DNA of 36,660 nt, from UHGV virus genome UHGV-0183637; one strand, given 5' to 3'. The notes under the pieces were generated by a model. The model had not been told where the DNA came from and did not search any database. It saw only the letters and a program-made list of their open reading frames with translations. The stretch's first letter is position 1. Each line of letters starts with the position of its first letter. The position numbers and the translations under genes were made by a program. The stretch is from a virus. Below are positions 1,429 to 23,531 of this stretch, one piece after another.

Positions 1429-2055
1429 TCATGCTGATTTCTTGTTTACAGGCTTAGTTTCTTGCTCCGGTGTGACGGGAACGCGATCACCTGGTGTTCC
1501 TGCTCGGATACAGGATTTGGCGCGTTGCAAAATCTCTTTGTCAGTTTCTTCATTACCAGCCAATGCCACGCAAATGGCCTCTTTTAGAGAGTCCCTTATG
1601 TTTAAGTTACGTATAACAGTTTCTATGTCTGTTTCTACTGACGTAGCCAGCCGATTCAAAATCCCTTTTACACCAATTTCTGATGCTGCTATCGCTAACG
1701 CTTTTCGATCCTTACTACTCACAAATCCTAACAATGAAACGATTAACGCAACAGAATCATCGTCGCAATCGAACTTTGGTTCGATTTTTTCATAATTATT
1801 CGAATCATTGCCTTGTGGTTGTTCTCCTGTCAGTAGCCACATAAGTGAAACACCACAGGCATCGGCAACCCTTGCTGCGCTATCAATGGTTGGGTAACTA
1901 TCTCCCCTTAGGTATTTCCTGACAGATGCTTCAGATAAGCCACTACGGCGAGCAATCTCACTTTTGTTTAGCCCCCCCATCGCTTTTTCCAGTCTTTCGC
2001 CAAAGCGTACTATTTGCTCATTATGAAAAGTACGATCATGTTTAATTGATGTCAT
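1429..2055 (-). CDS. Prophage repressor, XRE/lambda-CI-type HTH with uncharacterised C-terminal domain
   Basis: 208 aa. N-terminal HTH segment LNKSEIARRSGLSEASVRKYLRGDSYPTIDSAARVADACGVSLMWLLTGEQ. Leftward-transcribed and divergent from ner-A-B, the position of Mu c. GGGAGA RBS-like sequence upstream on the minus strand. No obvious S24 peptidase motif in the C-terminal half. Confidence 0.8.
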   Translation of the reverse strand: MTSIKHDRTFHNEQIVRFGERLEKAMGGLNKSEIARRSGLSEASVRKYLRGDSYPTIDSAARVADACGVSLMWLLTGEQPQGNDSNNYEKIEPKFDCDDDSVALIVSLLGFVSSKDRKALAIAASEIGVKGILNRLATSVETDIETVIRNLNIRDSLKEAICVALAGNEETDKEILQRAKSCIRAGTPGDRVPVTPEQETKPVNKKSA

Positions 2056-7204: not shown

Positions 7205-7234
7205 TTTAATTCAATTTTAATTGTTATTTAAAAC

Positions 7235-7267
7235 AGGCGTAAACCCGCCGGGGCTGACTTACGCCTG
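7235..7267 (+). repeat. Conserved intergenic stem-loop H1 (GGCGTAA...TTACGCC) followed by TGAAT
   Basis: CAGGCGTAAacccgccggggctgacTTACGCCTG then TGAATCTGGAG and the start codon. Near-identical copy at 8311, structurally equivalent copy at 7693. Confidence 0.55.
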
Positions 7268-7284
7268 AATCTGGAGAAATGAAA

Positions 7285-8281: not shown

Positions 8282-8310
8282 TAAGTCTGTTTTTAATTTT
8301 ATTTGTATAT

Positions 8311-8340
8311 GGCGTAAACCCGCCAGGGCTGGCTTACGCC
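8311..8340 (+). repeat. Conserved intergenic stem-loop H3 (GGCGTAA...TTACGCC) followed by TGAAT
   Basis: GGCGTAAacccgccagggctggcTTACGCC then TGAATCTGAGGAAG; near-identical to H1. Confidence 0.55.
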
Positions 8341-8419
8341 TGAATCTGAGGAAGTTTATTTATGAATATCGCCAAGCAAAAAAAATTCGCCCGCGAAATT
8401 AATCTGACAATCGTTTGTT

Positions 8420-11111: not shown

Positions 11112-11390
11112 ATGAAAATTGAACAAATCGGAATGGCAGCCTTCCGGCAGCAGGCTGAAAGCGGTGGCGTGGATGAGTTCGTCGTGCAGCGGTTCGGTGG
11201 TGTGTATCACCTCTTCGCTGTGAATCGCCACGCCGGGGTGTCCTATTTTCTACAGGAACGCCGTGGCGATTACAAGACGTGGCTGTCTCTTGACCGTGCC
11301 GCCGCGTTCCTGTCGGGGATTGGTGTTTCACGTTTTACCGTGCGTTTTGAGGATAACAAACATGCTGAAAAAGATGATCGGAGCCATTAA
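11112..11390 (+). CDS. Hypothetical protein
   Basis: ATG at 11112 directly downstream of the palindromic sites; 92 aa; weak RBS; overlaps the GemA-like start by 29 nt. Confidence 0.45.
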   Translation: MKIEQIGMAAFRQQAESGGVDEFVVQRFGGVYHLFAVNRHAGVSYFLQERRGDYKTWLSLDRAAAFLSGIGVSRFTVRFEDNKHAEKDDRSH

Positions 11391-11760
11391 AGCCGGTCAG
11401 GCGTATCTGGGGTGGGATGATGCCCTTTATCGTCAGACGCTGGCCCGCCTGACCGGTAAAACCAGCACCACACGCTGCAACCTCGATGAACTGCGCATCA
11501 TCCGGGAATACATGCATGAACAGGGATTTCCGCGTAAGGCACCCGCCGGTAAAGGTCGCCGCCCCCGTGTTGCAATGAGCAGAAAATCGATATTATCCAA
11601 AATTGAAGCGTTGCTGGCTGATGCCGGTCGTTCCTGGGCGTATGCAGAAGGACTGGCATCTCACATGTATAAGCAACATGTGATCGAATGGCTGACAGAT
11701 GATCAACTGTTTGGGGTGATGGTGGCGCTGGTTAAAGATTCAAGAAGGAGAAATCAATGA
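11362..11760 (+). CDS. GemA-like regulatory protein (Mu gp16 family)
   Basis: ATG at 11362 after GAGGA; MLKKMIGAIKAGQAYLGWDDALYRQTLARLTGKTSTTRCNLDELRIIREYMHEQGF resembles the GemA family and sits upstream of the Mor/C-family gene, as in Mu. Confidence 0.7.
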   Translation: MLKKMIGAIKAGQAYLGWDDALYRQTLARLTGKTSTTRCNLDELRIIREYMHEQGFPRKAPAGKGRRPRVAMSRKSILSKIEALLADAGRSWAYAEGLASHMYKQHVIEWLTDDQLFGVMVALVKDSRRRNQ

Positions 11761-12233
11761 TGAAAAAATGGTTGTTTTGTTTAGTAGGAGTTATTTTCTC
11801 TTGTTCTGCGCTGGCTCAGACAGAGGAACAGGCGCAAAAAGAACTGAAACGTTATCAGGATATGAAGCCATTGGCTGAACAGATGCTTCGGGAAAGTGGA
11901 AAACTTTATTACGCTATGCCAGCGGCAGCATCGCAGTACCAGCAGGGGAATATTGAAGAGTGGAAGAATATCAAAAAAGGACTAAAACAACTGGATGAAC
12001 AGGCCAGTAAACTGGGGGACGACCCGCTTGATCCTGTGTATGGTTCCTGCATAAAAATGAAAAACCAGCTACAGGATTACTGGTCTAACGTTATCAGGGA
12101 TGACAGGCAGTTTCTGGAACGTTCAAGAAATCAGTTTAAAGAATATCGTATGGATTGTTTTGATTCGTTTGTTTTTGGTAAAGAGCAAATAGAATCAAGA
12201 AAAGGCCTGGTTATTCTAGACCTGACTAAATAA
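11757..12233 (+). CDS. Secreted (periplasmic) protein of unknown function
   Basis: ATGA overlap with the GemA-like stop; signal peptide MMKKWLFCLVGVIFSCSALA then QTEE; AT-rich codon usage; followed by a rho-independent terminator. Confidence 0.65.
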   Translation: MMKKWLFCLVGVIFSCSALAQTEEQAQKELKRYQDMKPLAEQMLRESGKLYYAMPAAASQYQQGNIEEWKNIKKGLKQLDEQASKLGDDPLDPVYGSCIKMKNQLQDYWSNVIRDDRQFLERSRNQFKEYRMDCFDSFVFGKEQIESRKGLVILDLTK

Positions 12234-12245
12234 GACTTAGTTTAG

Positions 12246-12270
12246 CCCCTGCCATGCAGGGGATTTTTTT
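12246..12270 (+). terminator. Rho-independent terminator
   Basis: CCCCTGC-cat-GCAGGGG stem-loop followed by ATTTTTTT. Confidence 0.7.
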
Positions 12271-12275
12271 GTGGT

Positions 12276-12304
12276 CTGTACAGGCGATCATGTATGGCTA
12301 TAAT
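12276..12304 (+). promoter_or_regulatory. Putative promoter of the Mor/C-family gene (-10 TATAAT at 12299..12304, weak -35)
   Basis: Perfect TATAAT hexamer 30 nt upstream of the start codon; no good TTGACA 17 bp upstream, consistent with an activator-dependent promoter. Confidence 0.35.
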
Positions 12305-12333: not shown

Positions 12334-12801
12334 ATGCAGACCTTCAGTGAAACAGATCTTCGCGATGCGCAGGCACTGCTGCCCGATTCCGTGCAGCAAC
12401 TGATTAGCGTGATTGGCTTCCCCGCCCTGACCCGGTTAATCCGTTCTTTTGGTGGCGTGACGTTAAGCGGTAAAACCGGCGCACACGCCGAACGAACCGG
12501 CGGTGTCCATGCCCTGTTACATGATGTGCTGACCGAAGACGAAATCAACAAACTGATCCGCTTTCTTGGCGGTGCACCGTTTTACATTCCCCGTTGCGAT
12601 CATGCGTTACGTGCCCTGCGTAACACCCGTTTTATGGCTGATTTACAGCAGCATGTAAAAGACGGATGCTCACACCGGCAGGCGCTGGCACTGCTCTGTC
12701 CCCGTTACGGGATTTCAGACCGGTATGCATGGCAACTGATACACCGACGACAAAAACAGACTTCGCTGAAAAGCCCCACCCAGGTGGGGCTTTTTGATTA
12801 A
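12334..12801 (+). CDS. Mor/C-family transcriptional activator
   Basis: 155 aa; FLGGAPFYIPRCDHALRALRN matches the GG..YIPR signature of Mu Mor/C, with a C-terminal HTH (YGISDRYAWQLIHRR). GGAGA RBS 7 nt upstream. A GC-rich stem-loop plus T-run overlaps the 3' end. Confidence 0.8.
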   Translation: MQTFSETDLRDAQALLPDSVQQLISVIGFPALTRLIRSFGGVTLSGKTGAHAERTGGVHALLHDVLTEDEINKLIRFLGGAPFYIPRCDHALRALRNTRFMADLQQHVKDGCSHRQALALLCPRYGISDRYAWQLIHRRQKQTSLKSPTQVGLFD

Positions 12802-13116: not shown

Positions 13117-13143
13117 CCCATCCAGATAATCAACCTGCCGGGG

Positions 13144-13156
13144 GTGCTGAACACCC
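13144..13156 (+). promoter_or_regulatory. Conserved 13-mer GTGCTGAACACCC, copy A (putative late promoter/activator site upstream of the lysis genes)
   Basis: Exact 13-mer shared with 20702 and 32651; the extended dyad GGGTG-CTGAA-CACCC and following CAGCAGTACCC resemble copy B. Confidence 0.5.
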
Positions 13157-13303
13157 CCAGCAGTACCCACCACACCAGACCGTTTACCCTGTCCACTCAG
13201 ACCACAAGGCACCTTAAGGGATAGCGCCCTGCAAAAGGCTTTTGTGCCTTTGACAGGGTGTTATTTACGGGCCGTCAGTGGCTCAGATTTACAGGAGAAA
13301 CTC

Positions 13304-14003: not shown

Positions 14004-14532
14004 CATTTTTGATGAAGTCCTGGGCAAAGAAGGCGGTTACGTCAATCACCCGGATGATAAGGGCGGCCCGACCAAATGGGGCATTACGGAAAAAGTCGCC
14101 CGCGCCCACGGATACCGTGGCGATATGCGTGAGTTAACCCGCGAACAGGCGCTGGATATCCTTGAAGCCGATTACTGGTATGGCCCGCGATTTGACCAGG
14201 TCGCCGCATTATCCCCTGATATTGCCGCAGAGCTGTGTGATACTGGTGTGAATATGGGGCCAACCGTGGCGTCCAGAATGCTTCAGCGCTGGCTGAACGT
14301 TTTCAACCTGCGCGGCAGGCTGTACCCGGATATGGATACAGACGGACGCATCGGACCTCGCACCATCAGTGCATTGCGCGCCTTCCTGAATAATCGCGGT
14401 CAGGACGGTGAGCGGGTGATGCTGACGGCCCTGAACTGCACGCAGGGTGACCGCTATCTGGAACTGGCAGAGAAACGCGAGGCTAACGAATCGTTTGTTT
14501 ATGGCTGGCTGAAGGAGCGCGTGGCGGTATGA
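13987..14532 (+). CDS. Endolysin, GH108-type with peptidoglycan-binding domain
   Basis: N-terminus EGGYVNHPDDKGGPTKWGIT matches the GH108 signature as I recall it; 181 aa; located between membrane proteins and a small lipoprotein. Confidence 0.8.
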   Translation: MKSKDDIFDEVLGKEGGYVNHPDDKGGPTKWGITEKVARAHGYRGDMRELTREQALDILEADYWYGPRFDQVAALSPDIAAELCDTGVNMGPTVASRMLQRWLNVFNLRGRLYPDMDTDGRIGPRTISALRAFLNNRGQDGERVMLTALNCTQGDRYLELAEKREANESFVYGWLKERVAV

Positions 14533-14711
14533 CGCGTCAGCACTGGACACACAGAACGCCACGTAAAGCCGCGCGCTGTGTTCTGGCCCTGTTTCTGGTG
14601 ATGTTGCTTCCGGTGGGATGCACAGACATTAACAGGGCGGGCCAGCTGTTTGACGCGGCGGCGCAGGTCTGCCGGATTGTTGACGGCATCCGGCAGTGCT
14701 CACAGAACTGA
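14529..14711 (+). CDS. Small lipoprotein-like protein (possible spanin component)
   Basis: 60 aa; hydrophobic CVLALFLVMLLPVGC followed by a soluble tail; ATGA overlap with the endolysin stop. Confidence 0.4.
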   Translation: MTRQHWTHRTPRKAARCVLALFLVMLLPVGCTDINRAGQLFDAAAQVCRIVDGIRQCSQN

Positions 14712-14732
14712 TTTTTTTAAGGTTTTGCACAA

Positions 14733-15053
14733 ATGAAACAAAAAGAAAACACCGCGATTGCACTGGTGGAAGCCGCTGTTCCCGGGCGTCCCTTTAAGTT
14801 CGGACTGACGCAGGTTGTGGCTTTGCACGTCAGCGGAGAATGCGGGGAAATTAAAGCCCGTACCCAGTATGCAGATGGTGAAAACCGTTATCTGGTTTAT
14901 TACCAGGACGCCCGCAAGGCAGCACAGCTGAAATGGTTTGGCGAGTCCATGCTGGAAATGATTGAGGATATCCGCCATCCCGGAATGCCTGTATTTGCAG
15001 TCACCGAACTACCTGATGGCGCAACGGTTTCAGATACCCGGAAGGGCGTTTGA
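14733..15053 (+). CDS. Hypothetical protein
   Basis: 106 aa; between lysis and terminase genes. Confidence 0.55.
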   Translation: MKQKENTAIALVEAAVPGRPFKFGLTQVVALHVSGECGEIKARTQYADGENRYLVYYQDARKAAQLKWFGESMLEMIEDIRHPGMPVFAVTELPDGATVSDTRKGV

Positions 15054-15553
15054 TGGCGTGGTCACAGGATATCAGGGACAAAGTCCGTAACGGGTACATC
15101 TTTGACCAGCTTCCGCTGGATATCGTCGCCATGAAGTACGCCGTGCCGCACGACACCGCGCGGCGCTGGAAAACGCAGGCGATGAAGAACGGCGACGACT
15201 GGGACAAGCTGCGAGCCGCGCACGCGCTCGCCGGTGACGGGCTGGAAAGTGTCGCCCGCACCGTGCTTATCAGTCTGGTGGTGAAGTGTCAGACGACGCT
15301 TGAACGGCTGAACCAGAACCCGGACATCCCGCCGCAGGAGTCCGTCGAACTGCTGGCGAGTCTGTCTGACAGTCTCAGTAAGGCGGTGGCTAGCAGCAAA
15401 AAAATCCTGCCGGAAACCGACCGGCTCGCCACGGCACTGGAAGTGGTGCAGCGGCTCGGCGCGTTCATCAAGGAGCGTCACCCGGCACAGTATGCCCCGT
15501 TTCTTGAGGTGCTCGAAGGCTTCGCTAAAGAGCTTGAGGATAATTTCAGTTAA
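15050..15553 (+). CDS. Putative terminase small subunit (Mu gp27-like)
   Basis: 167 aa immediately upstream of the terminase large subunit; N-terminal region looks DNA-binding. Call is by position and size. Confidence 0.5.
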   Translation: MMAWSQDIRDKVRNGYIFDQLPLDIVAMKYAVPHDTARRWKTQAMKNGDDWDKLRAAHALAGDGLESVARTVLISLVVKCQTTLERLNQNPDIPPQESVELLASLSDSLSKAVASSKKILPETDRLATALEVVQRLGAFIKERHPAQYAPFLEVLEGFAKELEDNFS

Positions 15554-15605
15554 CCACAGCGGCCCGGTTTTCCGGGCCGTCTGATATTTGTATACCAGGT
15601 GTGAC

Positions 15606-17249: not shown

Positions 17250-18845
17250 ATGGCACAGCTTGTTGATATTTACGGACGCCCGCTGAAACGTGAGGCACTC
17301 AAAACCACGCAGTCGGTCAGAGTGGCGGAACGGCTGCGCATTTATCCAGACCACCCGTCGCGTGGTCTGAACATCAGAAAACTGCCGCGCATTCTGGAAG
17401 CTGCCGAACGCGGTTATCTTCCGGCGCAGGCGATGCTGTTTGCGGATATGGAAGAACGTGATGGCCATCTGTTCGCTGAAATGGAAAAGCGCAAAAAAGC
17501 GTTGCTGACGCTGGACTGGTCGGTGGAGCCGCCCCGCAATGCCTCGAAGGCAGAAAAGGAGCTGGCTGCCGCCGTGGATGAATGGCTGCACGGCATCCCG
17601 GACATGGAGGACATCATCCTCAACGGGATGAGCAGTGTCGGTTATGGCTTCAGTTGTCAGGAAATCAGCTGGGCGTTCGTGGATAAAACGTGGTTACCGG
17701 ATGCGGTGACGCTGCGACCGCATAACTGGTTTATTACCCTGCCGGAACACAATGACGAACTCCGGCTGGATGACGGCAATCGTGGGGAAGATGGTAAAGA
17801 CGGTTCCGCGCTGTGGCCGTTCGGCTGGCTGGTTCACCGTTACAACGCCCGGTCGGGGTTCCTGGGTTCGTCTGGTCTGTTTCGTGTACTGGTCTGGCCG
17901 TATCTGTTCAAAAACTTTGCGCTGCGTGATATGGCAGAATTTCTGGAGATTTACGGTCTTCCGGCGCGCATTGCTTACTATGCACAGGGCACCAGTGACG
18001 AGGACCGGGACAACATTCTTGAGGCGCTGGTCAATCTGGGGCATGAAGCGGTGGCAGCCCTGCCGCAGGGTAACGAAATTGAGTTCAAGGAGGCCGCATC
18101 CGGCGGACCGGAGGCGTTCATGTCGATGGTGGAATGGGCAGAGCGTACCACCTCAAAAGTGATTCTGGGCAGTACGCTGACCAGCCAGGCCGACGGTAAA
18201 ACCTCCACCAACGCGCTGGGTAATGTGCATAACGAGGTCAGGCACGACATTCTGGCCGCCGATGCGCGCCAGCTGTCCGGCATGTTCAGCAGCCTGATAC
18301 AGATGATGGCCAGCCTGAACGGCTGGCAGGATATCCCGCCACGCCGTCTGCCGCGTCTGGTGTTTGATGTGCAGCAGGAGGCCGACATTAAGGGCGTGGC
18401 GGAAGCCGTCAGCGTGCTGGTCAACAATGTGGGAATGAAGGATATCCCGGTGTCGTGGGTACGCAAAAAAACCGGTATCCCCACACCGAAAGACGGCGAA
18501 GAGGTACTGGTGCCGGTGGCACAGCGTCTCCCTGTGCAGGCGGGCCTCAGCCAGCTGCGTGAGCGGCTGAATGTTGCCGCGCTCAGTCAGCAGGACAACG
18601 GGGAGGACGACCCGGCACAGCGCGCCATCGACCGGGCAGAGCTTCCGGCAGAGGCCATCGCGCAGGGGATGAACGAACTGGTGGCCCCACTGGTGCAGGC
18701 CATACAGGAAGGCCGGGATGCAGACGAGGCCATGAACGTACTGGCGGAAGCCTGGCCGGAGCTGCCGGATGACACGCTGCGGCAGTTGCTGACGCAGGCA
18801 TTCTTTGTGGCGGATATCTGGGGGCGACTGAATGCCGACAGCTGA
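17250..18845 (+). CDS. Portal protein (Mu gp29-like)
   Basis: 531 aa directly after the terminase gene and before the F-like head morphogenesis gene. Confidence 0.8.
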   Translation: MAQLVDIYGRPLKREALKTTQSVRVAERLRIYPDHPSRGLNIRKLPRILEAAERGYLPAQAMLFADMEERDGHLFAEMEKRKKALLTLDWSVEPPRNASKAEKELAAAVDEWLHGIPDMEDIILNGMSSVGYGFSCQEISWAFVDKTWLPDAVTLRPHNWFITLPEHNDELRLDDGNRGEDGKDGSALWPFGWLVHRYNARSGFLGSSGLFRVLVWPYLFKNFALRDMAEFLEIYGLPARIAYYAQGTSDEDRDNILEALVNLGHEAVAALPQGNEIEFKEAASGGPEAFMSMVEWAERTTSKVILGSTLTSQADGKTSTNALGNVHNEVRHDILAADARQLSGMFSSLIQMMASLNGWQDIPPRRLPRLVFDVQQEADIKGVAEAVSVLVNNVGMKDIPVSWVRKKTGIPTPKDGEEVLVPVAQRLPVQAGLSQLRERLNVAALSQQDNGEDDPAQRAIDRAELPAEAIAQGMNELVAPLVQAIQEGRDADEAMNVLAEAWPELPDDTLRQLLTQAFFVADIWGRLNADS

Positions 18846-19998
18846 CGATGTTGACCTGGGTTATGCGTACACCCTGAAACCGGAAGAAGCGATTAAGTAT
18901 TTCGAAAGCAAGGGATACGTTATCGGCTTCCGCTGGCACGATGTGAAGGACATCGCACACGCCCGGGCGTTCACGGTGGCGGGCGTGCTGAAACTGGATG
19001 TGCTGAAGGATATCCGTGATGGCCTGACGGCGGCACTGGCTGACGGCGGGACGTTCCGGGAGTTTGCTGCACAACTGGAGCCACTGCTGGAATCAAAAGG
19101 CTGGCTGGGTAAACGGCTGATTGTGGACGAGGACACCGGCGAACTGCACGGCAGGCAGCTGATGCCGCGCCGGTTACGCACGATATTTGATACCAACATT
19201 CAGTCGTCATATAACGCCGGGCGTTATCAGCAGCAGATGGCGAACGTGGCCGACCGGCCTTATTTTGAGCGCGTGGCAGTGATGGACCTTCACACCCGCC
19301 CGAAACACGCCGCCCTGAACGGTTTTACCGCCCGGGCGGATGACCCGCTCTGGACGTATTTCTACGCGCCGGACGGATACGGATGCCGCTGCCGTATCCG
19401 GGCGCGTTCGGCGTCTGATGTGGAGAAATACGGCCTGACGGTGCAGAGCAGCGAGGGGCGACTGGTTGAGGTTGAGCAGGAATATGGCCAGCCAGGCCAG
19501 ACCATCAGAACAATGGGGCTGAAGATGCCGGACGGCTCCGTGTATACCGCTGACCCGGGCTTCGGTTTTAACCCCGGCAAAGTGGCATGGCAGCCGGAAC
19601 TGGAAAAATACGATTACCGCAGCGCCCGCCAGTATGTCACCGGCACCCTGACCGGGCCGGACTTTGCCCGGGGGCTGGCGAACGTCAGCGAACTGGATGC
19701 GCGCCAGCGGTATCCACTGGCCATCCGTTCGCCGGAACAGGTCGCCGCCACGGGCGCTGCACGACAGACGGTAAACCTTACGGCTGACGTCATGAAGCGC
19801 CTCAGTGCAACAGACACGCCCCCGACCGCCGCCGACTATGTGCTGATGCAGCAGACCATCGAACGGGCGGAGCATGTCACGCAGGACGGCAACGCGTGGC
19901 GATATGCGTTACAGTCGGGCGACAGCTGGTCAGTGGCGACGGTTGAGGATGACGTGCTGACAGACTGGGTTATGCAGGACACCCCGGAGGCATCATGA
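18832..19998 (+). CDS. Head morphogenesis protein (Mu F / gp30-like)
   Basis: 388 aa; overlaps the portal stop; position and size match Mu F. Confidence 0.8.
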   Translation: MPTADDVDLGYAYTLKPEEAIKYFESKGYVIGFRWHDVKDIAHARAFTVAGVLKLDVLKDIRDGLTAALADGGTFREFAAQLEPLLESKGWLGKRLIVDEDTGELHGRQLMPRRLRTIFDTNIQSSYNAGRYQQQMANVADRPYFERVAVMDLHTRPKHAALNGFTARADDPLWTYFYAPDGYGCRCRIRARSASDVEKYGLTVQSSEGRLVEVEQEYGQPGQTIRTMGLKMPDGSVYTADPGFGFNPGKVAWQPELEKYDYRSARQYVTGTLTGPDFARGLANVSELDARQRYPLAIRSPEQVAATGAARQTVNLTADVMKRLSATDTPPTAADYVLMQQTIERAEHVTQDGNAWRYALQSGDSWSVATVEDDVLTDWVMQDTPEAS

Positions 19999-20546
19999 GC
20001 AGCGGTAAACTGGATATTAAGATTGATTTAAGCGCGTATAACACCACGCTGGGGAAACTGATTAGTTCCGTGAAGGACCGGCGCGACCTGATGACGGCGC
20101 TTGCAGGCTCCATGCTGGATGCGGTTGAGACTAACTTTGAACAACAGGGTCGCCCGAAATGGATGGGCTGGAGTCCGGCTTATGCGAAGCGACGCGGCCC
20201 CGGGCAAATCCTTCAGAAGTCCGGGCGACTGGCTGCCAGTATCCGCTCTGCGGTTAACAATAACGAAGCCACGGTCGGGACAAACGTCCGTTATGCCCGT
20301 ATCCACAACGAAGGCGGCGAAATCCGCCATCAGGCACGGACGCAGAACCTGTATTTTAAACAGTACAAAAACGGCAGCGTCAGCAGCCGTTTTGTGAAAA
20401 AGCGCAACAGTAATTTTGTGCAGAGCGCAACGGTCGGAGCGTATACAGTCAACATGCCCGCGCGTCCCTTCCTTCAGCTTGTGCAGGACGACATCGACGA
20501 GCTGGAGAACACCGCAAACCGCTATTTTGCGCGTGTGATTGACTGA
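19995..20546 (+). CDS. Virion morphogenesis protein (Mu G-like)
   Basis: 183 aa; ATGA overlap with the F-like gene; Mu G position. Confidence 0.75.
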   Translation: MSSGKLDIKIDLSAYNTTLGKLISSVKDRRDLMTALAGSMLDAVETNFEQQGRPKWMGWSPAYAKRRGPGQILQKSGRLAASIRSAVNNNEATVGTNVRYARIHNEGGEIRHQARTQNLYFKQYKNGSVSSRFVKKRNSNFVQSATVGAYTVNMPARPFLQLVQDDIDELENTANRYFARVID

Positions 20547-20701
20547 ATGACCAGAAACGCGCTGTAATCGCCTGTGACAACATAAACGCCTCACGGATGA
20601 GGCATAACAGCACTGCACCCCGTAAATGCTGTCAGAATCGTTTTTAAAAGGGTTTTAAAAACGGTTTTATTTCCCCTTTTATCCTTTCGCGTTATGGCAG
20701 G

Positions 20702-20714
20702 GTGCTGAACACCC
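20702..20714 (+). promoter_or_regulatory. Conserved 13-mer GTGCTGAACACCC, copy B (putative late promoter upstream of the protease/scaffold gene)
   Basis: Exact 13-mer in a 200-bp intergenic gap inside the otherwise compact head operon, 33 bp upstream of ATG 20747. Confidence 0.5.
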
Positions 20715-20746
20715 TCCACAGTACCCCGTGCTCCCCTTCCGTCATC

Positions 20747-21871
20747 ATGCCGCGTATGAAGATGAACATTGCGGCATTAAGCCTCGAAATCACCAAAGCA
20801 ACCCACAGCGAAATCCAGCTGTTTCCGGCAGGCGAGTTCAGCGCAGTGGATGGTCGCCCACATACCGATGAAGTCGAAAGCGGTAAATGGGTGCTGACTG
20901 CCGAACTGGCCGCGCAGCTTGTCGCACAGGTGGCAGCCCGTACCACGCCTTTTGTCATTGATTACGAACATCAGACGCTGCGCGCCGTAAACAACGGCAA
21001 GCCCGCCCCGGCGGCGGGCTGGTTCAGCCAGGTGGAATGGCGTGAAGGTGTGGGCCTGTATGCCATCGGTGTGGAGTGGACGGAGAACGCGGCGGCCATG
21101 ATTGCCGCCGGTGAGTACAAATTTATTTCCCCTGTTTTTGCCTACAACAAGCGCGGCGAAGTGCTGGAGCTGTTACATGCTGCGCTGACCAATACCCCGG
21201 CGCTGGACGGTATGGACGCGGTCATGCTGGCTGCGGCCAGTCGTCTGGCGAGTCTGTCAACTGAAACGGAGACCACAACGGTGGATGAAGAACTGTTAAA
21301 CAATTTGCTTTCCGACCTGCGCTGGATGCTTAACCTCCCGGTGACCTCAACGGCGGAAGATATCAAAAACGAGCTGCAAAAGGTCGTTGACATGATTTCG
21401 AACGGTCAGGGAACGGCGGCGGCATCCGTCAGCCTGCTGGCCCTGCTGAATCAGAAAGACGAGCAAATCGCCAGCCTGTCAGCAAATGCCTATGACCCGA
21501 CGAAGCATATCCCTCTGACGGCATATGAAGAACTTCAGGGGCGTTATGCCGCACTGGCGCAACAGTCCGGTGAGGCCGAAGCCGGGGCACTGATTCAGGC
21601 GGCGCTGTCTGACGGACGCCTGCTTCCGGTACAGGAAGACTGGGCGAAAGATTACGCCAGCCGCGATATCAACGGTTTTAAAACATGGCTGGAAAAAGCG
21701 CCGAAAATTGACGCGCTCAGTCAGACCCAGACCGGCGGCAAGCCACCCAAAACGCCGTCGCCTGCCCCGGCGCAGATTAAAACCGGCGATGACGTCGATG
21801 TCGATATCGCCATTTGTTCAATGATGGGCGTCGATCCAGAGGATGTCGCCCGTTACGCAGGAGACGAGTAA
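20747..21871 (+). CDS. Head maturation protease/scaffold protein (Mu I-like)
   Basis: ATG at 20747 (the track's GTG at 20702 lies inside the promoter-like 13-mer); about 374 aa; position between G-like and major head genes. Confidence 0.75.
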   Translation: MPRMKMNIAALSLEITKATHSEIQLFPAGEFSAVDGRPHTDEVESGKWVLTAELAAQLVAQVAARTTPFVIDYEHQTLRAVNNGKPAPAAGWFSQVEWREGVGLYAIGVEWTENAAAMIAAGEYKFISPVFAYNKRGEVLELLHAALTNTPALDGMDAVMLAAASRLASLSTETETTTVDEELLNNLLSDLRWMLNLPVTSTAEDIKNELQKVVDMISNGQGTAAASVSLLALLNQKDEQIASLSANAYDPTKHIPLTAYEELQGRYAALAQQSGEAEAGALIQAALSDGRLLPVQEDWAKDYASRDINGFKTWLEKAPKIDALSQTQTGGKPPKTPSPAPAQIKTGDDVDVDIAICSMMGVDPEDVARYAGDE

Positions 21872-23189: not shown

Positions 23190-23531
23190 ATGGAAAAGGT
23201 GATTGAAATTACCGCCCGCCGTGAGGGTTTTCGCCGCTGCGGTGTGGCACACAGCGCAACCACGAAGGCATGGCCTGCGGATGCGTTCACCCCGGAACAG
23301 CTGGCGGTGCTGAAGGCTGACCCCATGCTGATTGTGGTGGAGCGTGATAAAGCGTCCGGCCAGAACGACGCGGACCAAAGTGATGAACTGGTCGCACAAC
23401 TGGATGCCGAACGCCAGAAAGTCAGCGAACTGACGGCGCAACTGGAAGAAGAACGCCAGAAAGTCAGTGAACTGACCGCACAGCTGAACGCCGCACAGAA
23501 AACACAAAAAGCGGACAAAAAGGAGAAGTAA
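23190..23531 (+). CDS. Hypothetical head-associated protein with coiled-coil C-terminus
   Basis: 113 aa; C-terminal half contains a tandemly duplicated 14-aa unit ERQKVSELTAQL(EE/NA). Confidence 0.6.
   Translation: MEKVIEITARREGFRRCGVAHSATTKAWPADAFTPEQLAVLKADPMLIVVERDKASGQNDADQSDELVAQLDAERQKVSELTAQLEEERQKVSELTAQLNAAQKTQKADKKEK
23409..23492 (+). repeat. Tandem direct duplication, 2 x 42 bp, inside a coding sequence
   Basis: GAACGCCAGAAAGTCAG(C/T)GAACTGAC(G/C)GC(G/A)CA(A/G)CTG... appears twice back to back with a few substitutions. Confidence 0.6.

Follow-up and report, generated by a model that had tools for sequence, protein, structure and literature searches.

We analyzed a 36,660-nt stretch of viral DNA, the genome UHGV-0183637 (hereafter, the window), and found that the non-coding spacer between its G-like and I-like genes (20547–20746) is probably a real, conserved control region of a known type, which consists of two parts and represents the counterpart of the spacer between genes G and I of phage Mu. 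The two halves of the spacer would function independently of each other. The right half very likely holds a late promoter of the Mu C type, i.e., an activator-dependent counterpart of the Mu promoter P_I. For the left half, sequence comparison tips the balance slightly toward an element that resembles Mu's strong gyrase site (SGS) and that would be bound by gyrase. The arrangement is a new example of the already known Mu type, and it suggests that the two-part central spacer of Mu is conserved in a distantly related family of Escherichia coli prophages, where a putative gyrase site organizing the prophage for transposition is paired with an activator-dependent promoter of head genes. The analysis provides testable coordinates: those of the activator box and −10 hexamer of the promoter, its start point, and the predicted site of gyrase cleavage.

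The spacer starts after the stop codon (20546) of the G-like virion morphogenesis gene (19995–20546, plus strand; Pfam PF05069, Phage_tail_S, E = 3.6e-26) and is followed by the I-like protease/scaffold gene (20756–21871, plus strand; Pfam PF10123, Mu-like_Pro, E = 9e-100; PHROG 328). A first-pass annotation had described it as an unusually long non-coding gap, and the description is accurate: with 200 nt from the stop codon to ATG 20747, it is the longest of 21 consecutive late-gene junctions, the next largest being 53 nt. Measured to ATG 20756, the gap is 209 nt. The latter codon is most likely the true start of I, because its equivalent is picked by the Prokaryotic Genome Annotation Pipeline (PGAP) in three E. 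coli genomes (L131–L133), and because in L003–L005 the ATG further upstream is not in the reading frame of I; moreover, ATG 20747 coincides in part with the predicted −10 hexamer described below. In the Mu record, the G–I spacer spans 17860–18055 (196 nt) and includes the gyrase cut at 17879/80, a predicted terminator at 17908–17953, and P_I at 17977–18043. Thus, the spacer of the window is nearly equal in length to that of Mu, and it is collinear with the left and middle parts of the Mu spacer.

The promoter was recognized by a 13-mer, GTGCTGAACACCC, which had been noted previously at 20702 as conserved. It is indeed present there, and the 36.66 kb contain exactly three perfect copies of it, at 13144, 20702, and 32651, all on the plus strand; the chance expectation is 2×36660/4^13, i.e., about 0.001 matches per extra copy. 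The copies stand ahead of the lysis genes, gene I, and a gp46-like baseplate gene, respectively. At I, the 13-mer (20702–20714) comprises the left half and the spacer of a 16-bp imperfect dyad, GCTGAACACCCTCCAC (20704–20719, plus strand), which is the predicted site of a Mor/C-family activator, and a predicted −10 hexamer, CATCAT (20743–20748, plus strand), follows 23 nt after the dyad. The other two sites have the same composition. The lysis promoter (13146–13190, plus strand), in the position of Mu Plys before the holin and endolysin genes, includes a dyad at 13146–13161 and the hexamer TACCCT at 13185–13190; the baseplate promoter (32653–32706, plus strand), before the gp46-like gene (PHROG 180), includes a dyad at 32653–32668 and the hexamer CAGACT at 32692–32697. 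All three hexamers have A in the second and T in the sixth position (A2/T6), and their distance from the dyad is identical. A scan for σ70 −35 and −10 elements detected no −35 hexamer and no ordinary σ70 promoter in the gap.

The same geometry is found in other phages. An 11-mer box followed, after exactly 28 nt, by an A2/T6 hexamer is present in 12 of the 12 promoters of this phage group, i.e., the three promoters in the window and nine from five related prophages of other genera, with I proteins 55–69% identical. In these related prophages, the box is a perfect dyad, GCTGA-N6-TCAGC, located in the same place, and the nearest outgroup of the window's clade (L063) has this perfect dyad as well, suggesting that the right half of the dyad has decayed in the window's clade. 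In a broader set, 34 of 43 loci show an A2/T6 hexamer at 6–7 nt from the ATG of I, on its upstream side, compared to 3.6 expected (binomial P = 6e-29, for loci that are not phylogenetically independent). When 38 loci were examined for inverted repeats, the centre of the best one was 31.5 bp (±1 bp) ahead of the start of the hexamer in 25 of them. The dyad of the window is likewise centred 31.5 bp upstream of the hexamer start, which corresponds to −43.5 to −44.5 if transcription starts at the predicted position, 20755/56. The late promoters of Mu have a −10 element without a −35 element, and C binds a 16-bp imperfect dyad centred at −43.5 (PMC2582627; also PMC4461284). With the hexamer at −12 to −7, a dyad centred 31.5 bp before it is at −43.5, a position equal to the published position of the Mu C site. 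The sequence of the dyad varies among phages, with CTGAA-, ATTAAA-, GGAAC-, and TAACC-types, while its position is constant. In L006–L042, we observed lineage-specific dyads of 12–18 bp approximately 36–52 nt upstream of the I start, for example, GCTGAAGccCTTCAGC, GATTAAAacccTTTAATC, CGGAAACGTTTCCG, ACTAACCccGGTTAGT, and GCGACGGCCGTCGC. Pairs of dyads and activators with fixed geometry make up a natural series for studying the specificity of the Mor/C family.

The predicted reader of the dyads in the window, judging from homology, is the product of a Mor/C-family late activator gene (12334–12801, plus strand). This protein matches Pfam PF08765 (E = 1.1e-6, above the cut-off) and PHROG 836, which is described as "late transcriptional activator" (E = 1.2e-42), and its BLASTP alignment with Mu C (E = 6e-5 over 21 residues) includes the matched FLGG..FYIP motif. 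Its counterpart is the sole Mor-family gene that PGAP annotates in the three complete copies of the prophage. Among the few phages with a Mor/C gene inside the fetched flank, the predicted recognition helix of the activator differs between CTGAA-type and GGAAC-type phages; this difference, taken together with the difference in dyad type, ties the protein family to the site, on few cases. Another Mor-like gene, which follows the GemA gene (11757–12233), was rejected as a candidate: it has no Pfam or PHROG match and no similarity to Mu Mor, and it is missing from L131. The region that precedes the activator gene (12246–12304) contains an intrinsic terminator (CCCCTGCcatGCAGGGG and a T-run) and a near-consensus σ70 promoter (TGTACA, 16 nt, TATAAT).

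The likeness to P_I of Mu extends over most of these features. The promoters occupy the same location between G and I, a Mor/C-family activator is encoded in both phages, and both promoters have a 16-bp imperfect dyad centred approximately 43.5 bp upstream of the start, a recognizable −10 element, and no −35 element. In addition, the lysis, I, and baseplate modules of the window mirror Plys, P_I, and P_P of Mu, although the third promoter precedes the gp46-like gene in the window and gene P in Mu. There are further differences. The dyad sequence of the window is unrelated to that of the C sites of Mu, and the activator is only distantly related to C. A site of the fourth, mom type was not seen in the window, whereas Mu has Pmom. 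Mu encodes Mor plus C, and two Mor/C-family genes are also present in the Photorhabdus and Xenorhabdus relatives, compared to one in the window's clade, which suggests a shorter regulatory cascade in this clade.

In the proposed mechanism, a dimer or tetramer of the activator would bind the dyad in the right half of the spacer (approximately 20700–20755). The dyad, about 44 bp upstream of the start point, would replace the −35 element, and the activator would let the σ70 RNA polymerase use the weak −10 hexamer CATCAT. Transcription would start at the A of ATG 20756 or at a neighbouring nucleotide, so that the mRNA of the protease/scaffold and capsid genes would have no leader. A module of the same kind would drive the lysis/packaging operon (13146–13190) and the baseplate/tail-fibre operon (32653–32697), with start points predicted near 13197 and 32704, respectively. 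The first-pass annotation had postulated an internal regulated promoter in the gap, with a hairpin and an A/T-rich dyad among the evidence cited. The predicted promoter is well supported in silico, because the dyad of the 13-mer lies at a fixed distance from the hexamer, the module is repeated, and a Mor/C-family gene is present in the window. Conversely, neither the hairpin nor the A/T block belongs to the promoter: both are located at a distance of 66–168 nt from the predicted start, on its upstream side, and they align with the core and the right arm of the Mu SGS.

Several observations do not favour the promoter assignment. The right half of the dyad is degenerate in the window's clade (TCCAC, CCAGC, and TCACC), the −10 hexamers are weak (CATCAT, TACCCT, and CAGACT), and the start point of the I promoter is a position predicted from sequence. 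Furthermore, a different palindrome, (A)GGGTG-ctgaa-CACCC(T), the centre of which is 4.5 bp further upstream, outperforms the dyad at two of the three sites. This palindrome is perfect at I, reaches 13 pairs at the lysis site, and has only 3 bp at the third site, and it is absent in the relatives. Because this palindrome competes with a degenerate dyad, the binding register is uncertain; we favour the register shared with the relatives, i.e., that of the GCTGA-N6-TCAGC type. It should be noted that, around the box of the lysis promoter, the 13-pair palindrome CTGCCGGGGGTG ctgaa CACCCCCAGCAG (13135–13163) is marked by the terminator scan as a terminator-like site on the minus strand, and this palindrome might end or pause a transcript arriving from the activator gene.

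The left half of the spacer contains the two other features reported previously. The hairpin GCCTCA-cgga-TGAGGC (20588–20603, plus strand) is present as described; its RNA fold has an energy of −9.3 kcal/mol (z = −3.9), and none of 200 shuffles folds as well. The hairpin is retained in 17 close relatives, among which there are two independent C>T changes, which result in G·U pairs, and one 1-nt deletion; the paired G·U changes weakly suggest a role as plus-strand RNA. The inverted repeat around AAAAGGG also exists (AAAAGGG at 20646–52 and CCCCTTTT at 20673–80), and a stronger dyad, AATCGTTTTTAAAA-GGG-TTTTAAAAACGGTT (20636–20666), is found alongside. This A/T dyad is a part of a run of A/T tracts with a 12-bp phase (20641–20687), contained in the phased A/T block CAGAATCGTTTTTAAAAGGGTTTTAAAAACGGTTTTATTTCCCCTTTTATCCTTTC (20633–20688, no strand assigned), the putative counterpart of the right arm of the Mu SGS. 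The block includes five A/T tracts at 12-bp spacing (z = 5.2), and the right arm of Mu is similarly phased.

The window aligns collinearly with Mu over 20593–20690 (Mu 17861–17965). The local alignment score is 28 compared to 14.9±2.2 for shuffled sequences, a score that none of 1000 shuffles reaches; when the local composition is kept, 7 of 1000 shuffles reach it. In this alignment, the predicted gyrase cleavage core of the window, ACGGATGAGGCATAACAGC|ACTGCAC (20593–20618, no strand assigned), which opens with the 3' arm of the hairpin, is matched to ACAGAATCAGGCATAAAATC|AGCCGCAC of Mu, and the cut annotated in Mu at the position of the bar predicts a cut at 20611/12 in the window, just 3' of the hairpin. 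The A/T block is matched to GGGATTTTTAAACCGGTATTTAACGG…TCCCGTTTTATCTTCCTTTC of Mu. The 133-bp fragment that has served as the Mu SGS (PMC6379681 supplement) contains the whole aligned Mu stretch, and GGGATTTTTAAACCGGTATTTAACGG…TCCCGTTTTATCTTCCTTTC falls in its right arm. A gyrase footprint of 130 bp centred at 20611 would cover 20546–20677, which is the non-promoter part of the gap. The A/T block is nearly invariant in 18 close relatives, with variation in the first 90 nt of the gap, and its core is common to Mu and five other genera in a seven-way alignment. A profile of the block, run over 96 Mu-like loci (1.48 Mb), produced 19 matches with E <=0.1, 16 of which are on the plus strand, at 93–310 nt before I. 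The block of distant phages is a direct repeat, in which TTTAAACGGGG occurs twice. We infer that a block that stays constant while the activator dyads change fits better with a conserved host partner, such as gyrase, than with a protein specific to the phage.

The position of the site within the prophage is also similar to that in Mu. The predicted cut is at 50.0% of the length of one complete copy (L131), where it is +5 bp from the midpoint of 37,531 bp, and at 53.7% in two others (L132 and L133), compared to 48.7% in Mu. According to the literature, the SGS has to be central, with central placement being optimal for function, and sites of this kind are confined to Mu-like prophages (PMC10052514; PMC3820752). 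The right arm of the Mu SGS is essential and has DNA-bending repeat motifs, whereas the left arm is dispensable (PMC10052514). By analogy with Mu, gyrase would cut the left half of the spacer (approximately 20547–20690) at 20611/12, in a core that appears homologous to the Mu cleavage site, and the phased A/T right arm would wrap on the C-terminal domain of GyrA. Bound near the midpoint, gyrase would introduce supercoils into the prophage in a processive manner, which would assist the synapsis of the two ends for replicative transposition. The Mu SGS is located in the same spacer, near the middle of the genome, and its right arm appears to share with the window the A/T tracts, the phasing of approximately 12 bp, and the motif TTTTTAAA..GG..TTTAA. 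The two sites differ in that the left arm in Mu lies in the final part of gene G, compared to a predicted 130-bp site that is entirely non-coding in the window, and in that Mu has an extra A/T tract beside the cut. A central gyrase site is also known from the Mu-like prophage of E. coli O157:H7 Sakai; among foreign sites, this SGS is the only one reported to be able to replace that of Mu (PMC10052514).

The gyrase assignment has to be considered along with results that speak against it. The alignment with the Mu SGS is of limited length and involves A/T-rich sequence, as reflected in the 7 of 1000 shuffles mentioned above. The A/T periodicity of the block ranks fifth in the window, and the right arm of Mu, used as a positive control, ranks fifth in 12 kb; accordingly, periodicity was rejected as a discriminator and taken as supportive only. 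A scan with the published 133-bp gyrase consensus, at the level of nucleotides or of A/T versus G/C, was discarded because the positive control failed, with the Mu SGS outside the top sites of Mu. The site is +1.3 kb off the midpoint in the two shorter, 35.7-kb variants of the prophage. Finally, most foreign candidate sites failed to replace the Mu SGS (PMC10052514).

An alternative with a smaller, although appreciable, probability is that the spacer contains a promoter and a terminator only. In this case, the A/T block, perhaps together with the hairpin, would end the lysis/packaging transcript through a weak AU-rich hairpin (20636–20666) and a U-rich tail, or else the block would be a bent-DNA or nucleoid-protein site that assists the promoter, with no special relation to gyrase. 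The block can fold as a hairpin (−9.7 kcal/mol) followed by UUUUAUUUCCCCUUUUAU, and the homologous stretch of Mu is annotated as a predicted terminator (−19.8 kcal/mol, z = −4.2); yet the hairpin of the window is no better than its shuffles (z = −1.3), has two G-C pairs, and fails the terminator scan, and the Mu stretch lies inside the fragment used experimentally as the SGS. Termination in the spacer is to be expected from the more distant relatives, which have a clear terminator-like hairpin after G. In L001, L002, and L005, a complete hairpin with a U tail occupies this position; the post-G hairpins of the relatives fold at −15.1 and −13.4 kcal/mol with U tails, and the hairpin of L002 was missed by the terminator scan, probably because its 9-nt loop exceeds the 8-nt limit of the scan, and was shown by folding. 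The window retains at this position a terminator remnant, AAACGCGCTGTAATCGCCTGTG (20555–20576, plus strand), which consists of the left arm and the loop, the right arm and the T-run being missing. However, the relatives with a proper terminator keep the A/T block anyway, and the direct, rather than inverted, repeat of TTTAAACGGGG in distant phages is better explained by DNA bending than by an RNA stem. The hairpin at 20588–20603 does not qualify as a Rho-independent terminator on the plus strand, where it is followed by AUAACAGCAC rather than by a T-run, and the terminator scan reports it only as a match on the minus strand (20605–20586). The roles of terminator and gyrase site are mutually compatible: the AU-rich palindrome and the U-rich tail behind it might act as a weak terminator, comparable to but much weaker than its counterpart in Mu, and transcripts of the lysis operon may read through into I.

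Two further explanations, both with very low probability, would replace the promoter or the entire two-part control region by an RNA or a gene. According to one of them, the 13-mer acts as RNA, with the stem-loop GGGUGCUGAACACCC involved in processing, stability, or antitermination in late 5' leaders, and the promoter is located further upstream. The copy at I does fold as a stem-loop (−12.5 kcal/mol, z = −2.4), and the palindrome of the lysis copy reaches 13 pairs, but the stem of the third copy is limited to 3 bp. The relatives with CCGCTGAACCCCC and the outgroup L063 cannot form the stem, yet they keep GCTGA-N6-TCAGC and the hexamer spacing, and other phages have unrelated dyads in the same position. 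In addition, the scan showed no σ70-like promoter upstream of the stem-loop, and the region has no Rfam match. The other explanation, which we consider the least probable of all, is that the spacer holds a gene, on either strand, for a small protein or RNA. The only ORFs overlapping the gap are short and on the minus strand (20591–20719, 42 aa; 20449–20613, 54 aa), and there is a terminator-like site on that strand (20605–20586). However, these ORFs begin with GTG and cross the promoter and the A/T block, close relatives have 1-nt indels in the gap, and PGAP annotates nothing in the gap in three genomes. Rfam, run with gathering as well as permissive thresholds, returned nothing credible for the gap, with sub-threshold matches of 19 and 17 bits compared to gathering scores of 50 and 40. 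A conserved RNA structure spanning the whole gap was rejected, the consensus fold having almost no covariation (term +0.25; 2 of 66 pairs). In one pair of this fold (columns 50/101), A-U is replaced by G-C in six sequences; five sequences lack this pairing, and the pair is linked to a third site, so that shared ancestry explains the pattern equally well.

The preferred two-part control region, with an activator-dependent promoter at I, has an implication for translation. A tetramer resembling a Shine-Dalgarno (SD) sequence precedes I in only 4 of the 43 loci, and there is none at I of the window. Together with the short distance of 6–7 nt between the −10 hexamer and the ATG of I, seen in 34 of 43 loci, the scarcity of SD sequences predicts leaderless late mRNAs, and the comparative set extends this prediction for structural genes to many Mu-like phages. 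For the window itself, the chances that the I mRNA is leaderless and starts on ATG 20756 appear about even, given the promoter geometry. The same prediction applies to the gp46-like gene, with ATG 32704 six nt after the hexamer (CAGACT ggcggc ATG). The cI mRNA transcribed from P_RM of phage lambda is leaderless, with the start at the A of the start codon and no SD sequence; the case of the window differs in being predicted from promoter geometry and in involving late structural genes under an activator rather than a repressor gene. It differs from Mu, too, where the annotated P_I ends 12 nt before I and a ribosome-binding site is annotated, whereas the start in the window is predicted at the ATG.

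In approximately 40% of the loci, the −10 hexamer is flanked by complementary G+C-rich arms that are specific to the locus. On average, 5.0 of 7 positions of the arms are paired, compared to 4.36±0.12 when the arms are permuted between loci, and none of 2000 permutations reaches the observed value. We observed G+C-rich palindromes around the −10 hexamer, with the 3' arm abutting or including the ATG, at 32679–32712 in the window and at the I promoters of L007, L009, L013, L015, L017, L018, L020, L022, L036, and others; for example, GTCCATGCTGCC aga CTGGCGGCATGGAC and GCCGCC gacact GGCGGC ATG. The baseplate promoter of the window lies within a strong palindrome of this kind (~32679–32712, ATG included; −24.9 kcal/mol, z = −5.7), and the palindrome is weak at the I promoter of the window. 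A tentative reading, to which we give somewhat less than an even chance, is that in the window's prophage, as well as in the majority of the 43 Mu-like prophages, and not in Mu, activator-dependent late promoters fire directly onto the start codon and the palindrome, where there is one, buries the AUG in read-through RNA. Equally tentatively, only promoter-initiated transcripts would then be translated, and the spacer, together with the gyrase site, would form a combined node of topology, transcription, and translation. In the searchable literature, we found no report of leaderless late mRNAs in Mu-like phages or of −10 palindromes.

The remaining gene content places the spacer in a typical context. 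The ORF map and the Pfam and PHROG scans show that the window is a Mu-like transposable prophage, with a transposase, GemA, a Mor-family protein, portal_Mu, F, G, I, and T. A repressor gene (1429–2055, minus strand) is followed by the transposase and AAA ATPase genes and by GemA (11263–11760); after the Mor-family gene at 12334–12801 come two holins and an endolysin, and then the Mu-type portal and F, and the major head protein T lies downstream of I, followed by tail and baseplate genes. Positions 1–1116 are host tkt/tal DNA, 91% identical to E. coli, and the homology ends at 1116; the left end of the prophage is at 1117 (TGTGGGGTAGTGATCAATTCTGG, beginning with TGTGGGG), and the insertion is in E. 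coli tkt. Within the left end (1117–1270), the motifs ATTCTGGGCGGA and GCGCTTTT recur; they are likely to be sites for the transposase. Terminal inverted repeats were not found within the window, which stops inside the tail-fibre region, before the right end; the right ends and the complete prophage lengths were taken from the copies in complete E. coli genomes (L131, L132, and L133). Other copies are inserted in eutC, in mhpT, and at another position of tkt, and their right ends read …CGCGAAGTTACA. Of 5426 complete E. coli genomes, 55 contain the same prophage, among them that of the enteropathogenic strain E2348/69 (NC_011601.1, with the prophage at about 2,715,935–2,751,670); strain AH19B041 is another carrier. 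The prophage is distant from Mu, its I protein being less than 60% identical to that of every phage record, and a DNA search of the phage records yielded matches of only 66–72%, in coding parts, with the gap covered by no record.

The copies differ from each other in several regions. In L131–L133, a DNA methyltransferase gene (locus 14465–15205) lies between the DUF1804 gene and terL, and it is absent in the window (15553–15588). The tail-fibre end consists of a long fibre gene in some copies and, in others, of a fibre gene and an assembly gene in an arrangement that looks invertible. This variation shifts the relative position of the gap between 50% and 54% of the total length. Repeats were observed at two other places in the window: a 72-nt intergenic repeat in the early region (7207–7278 and 8282–8353, 79% identical), which contains the hairpin GGCGTAAACCCGCC…GGCTTACGCC, and three tandem 42-nt (14-codon) repeats at 23385–23510, within the FluMu_N-domain gene (23190–23531).

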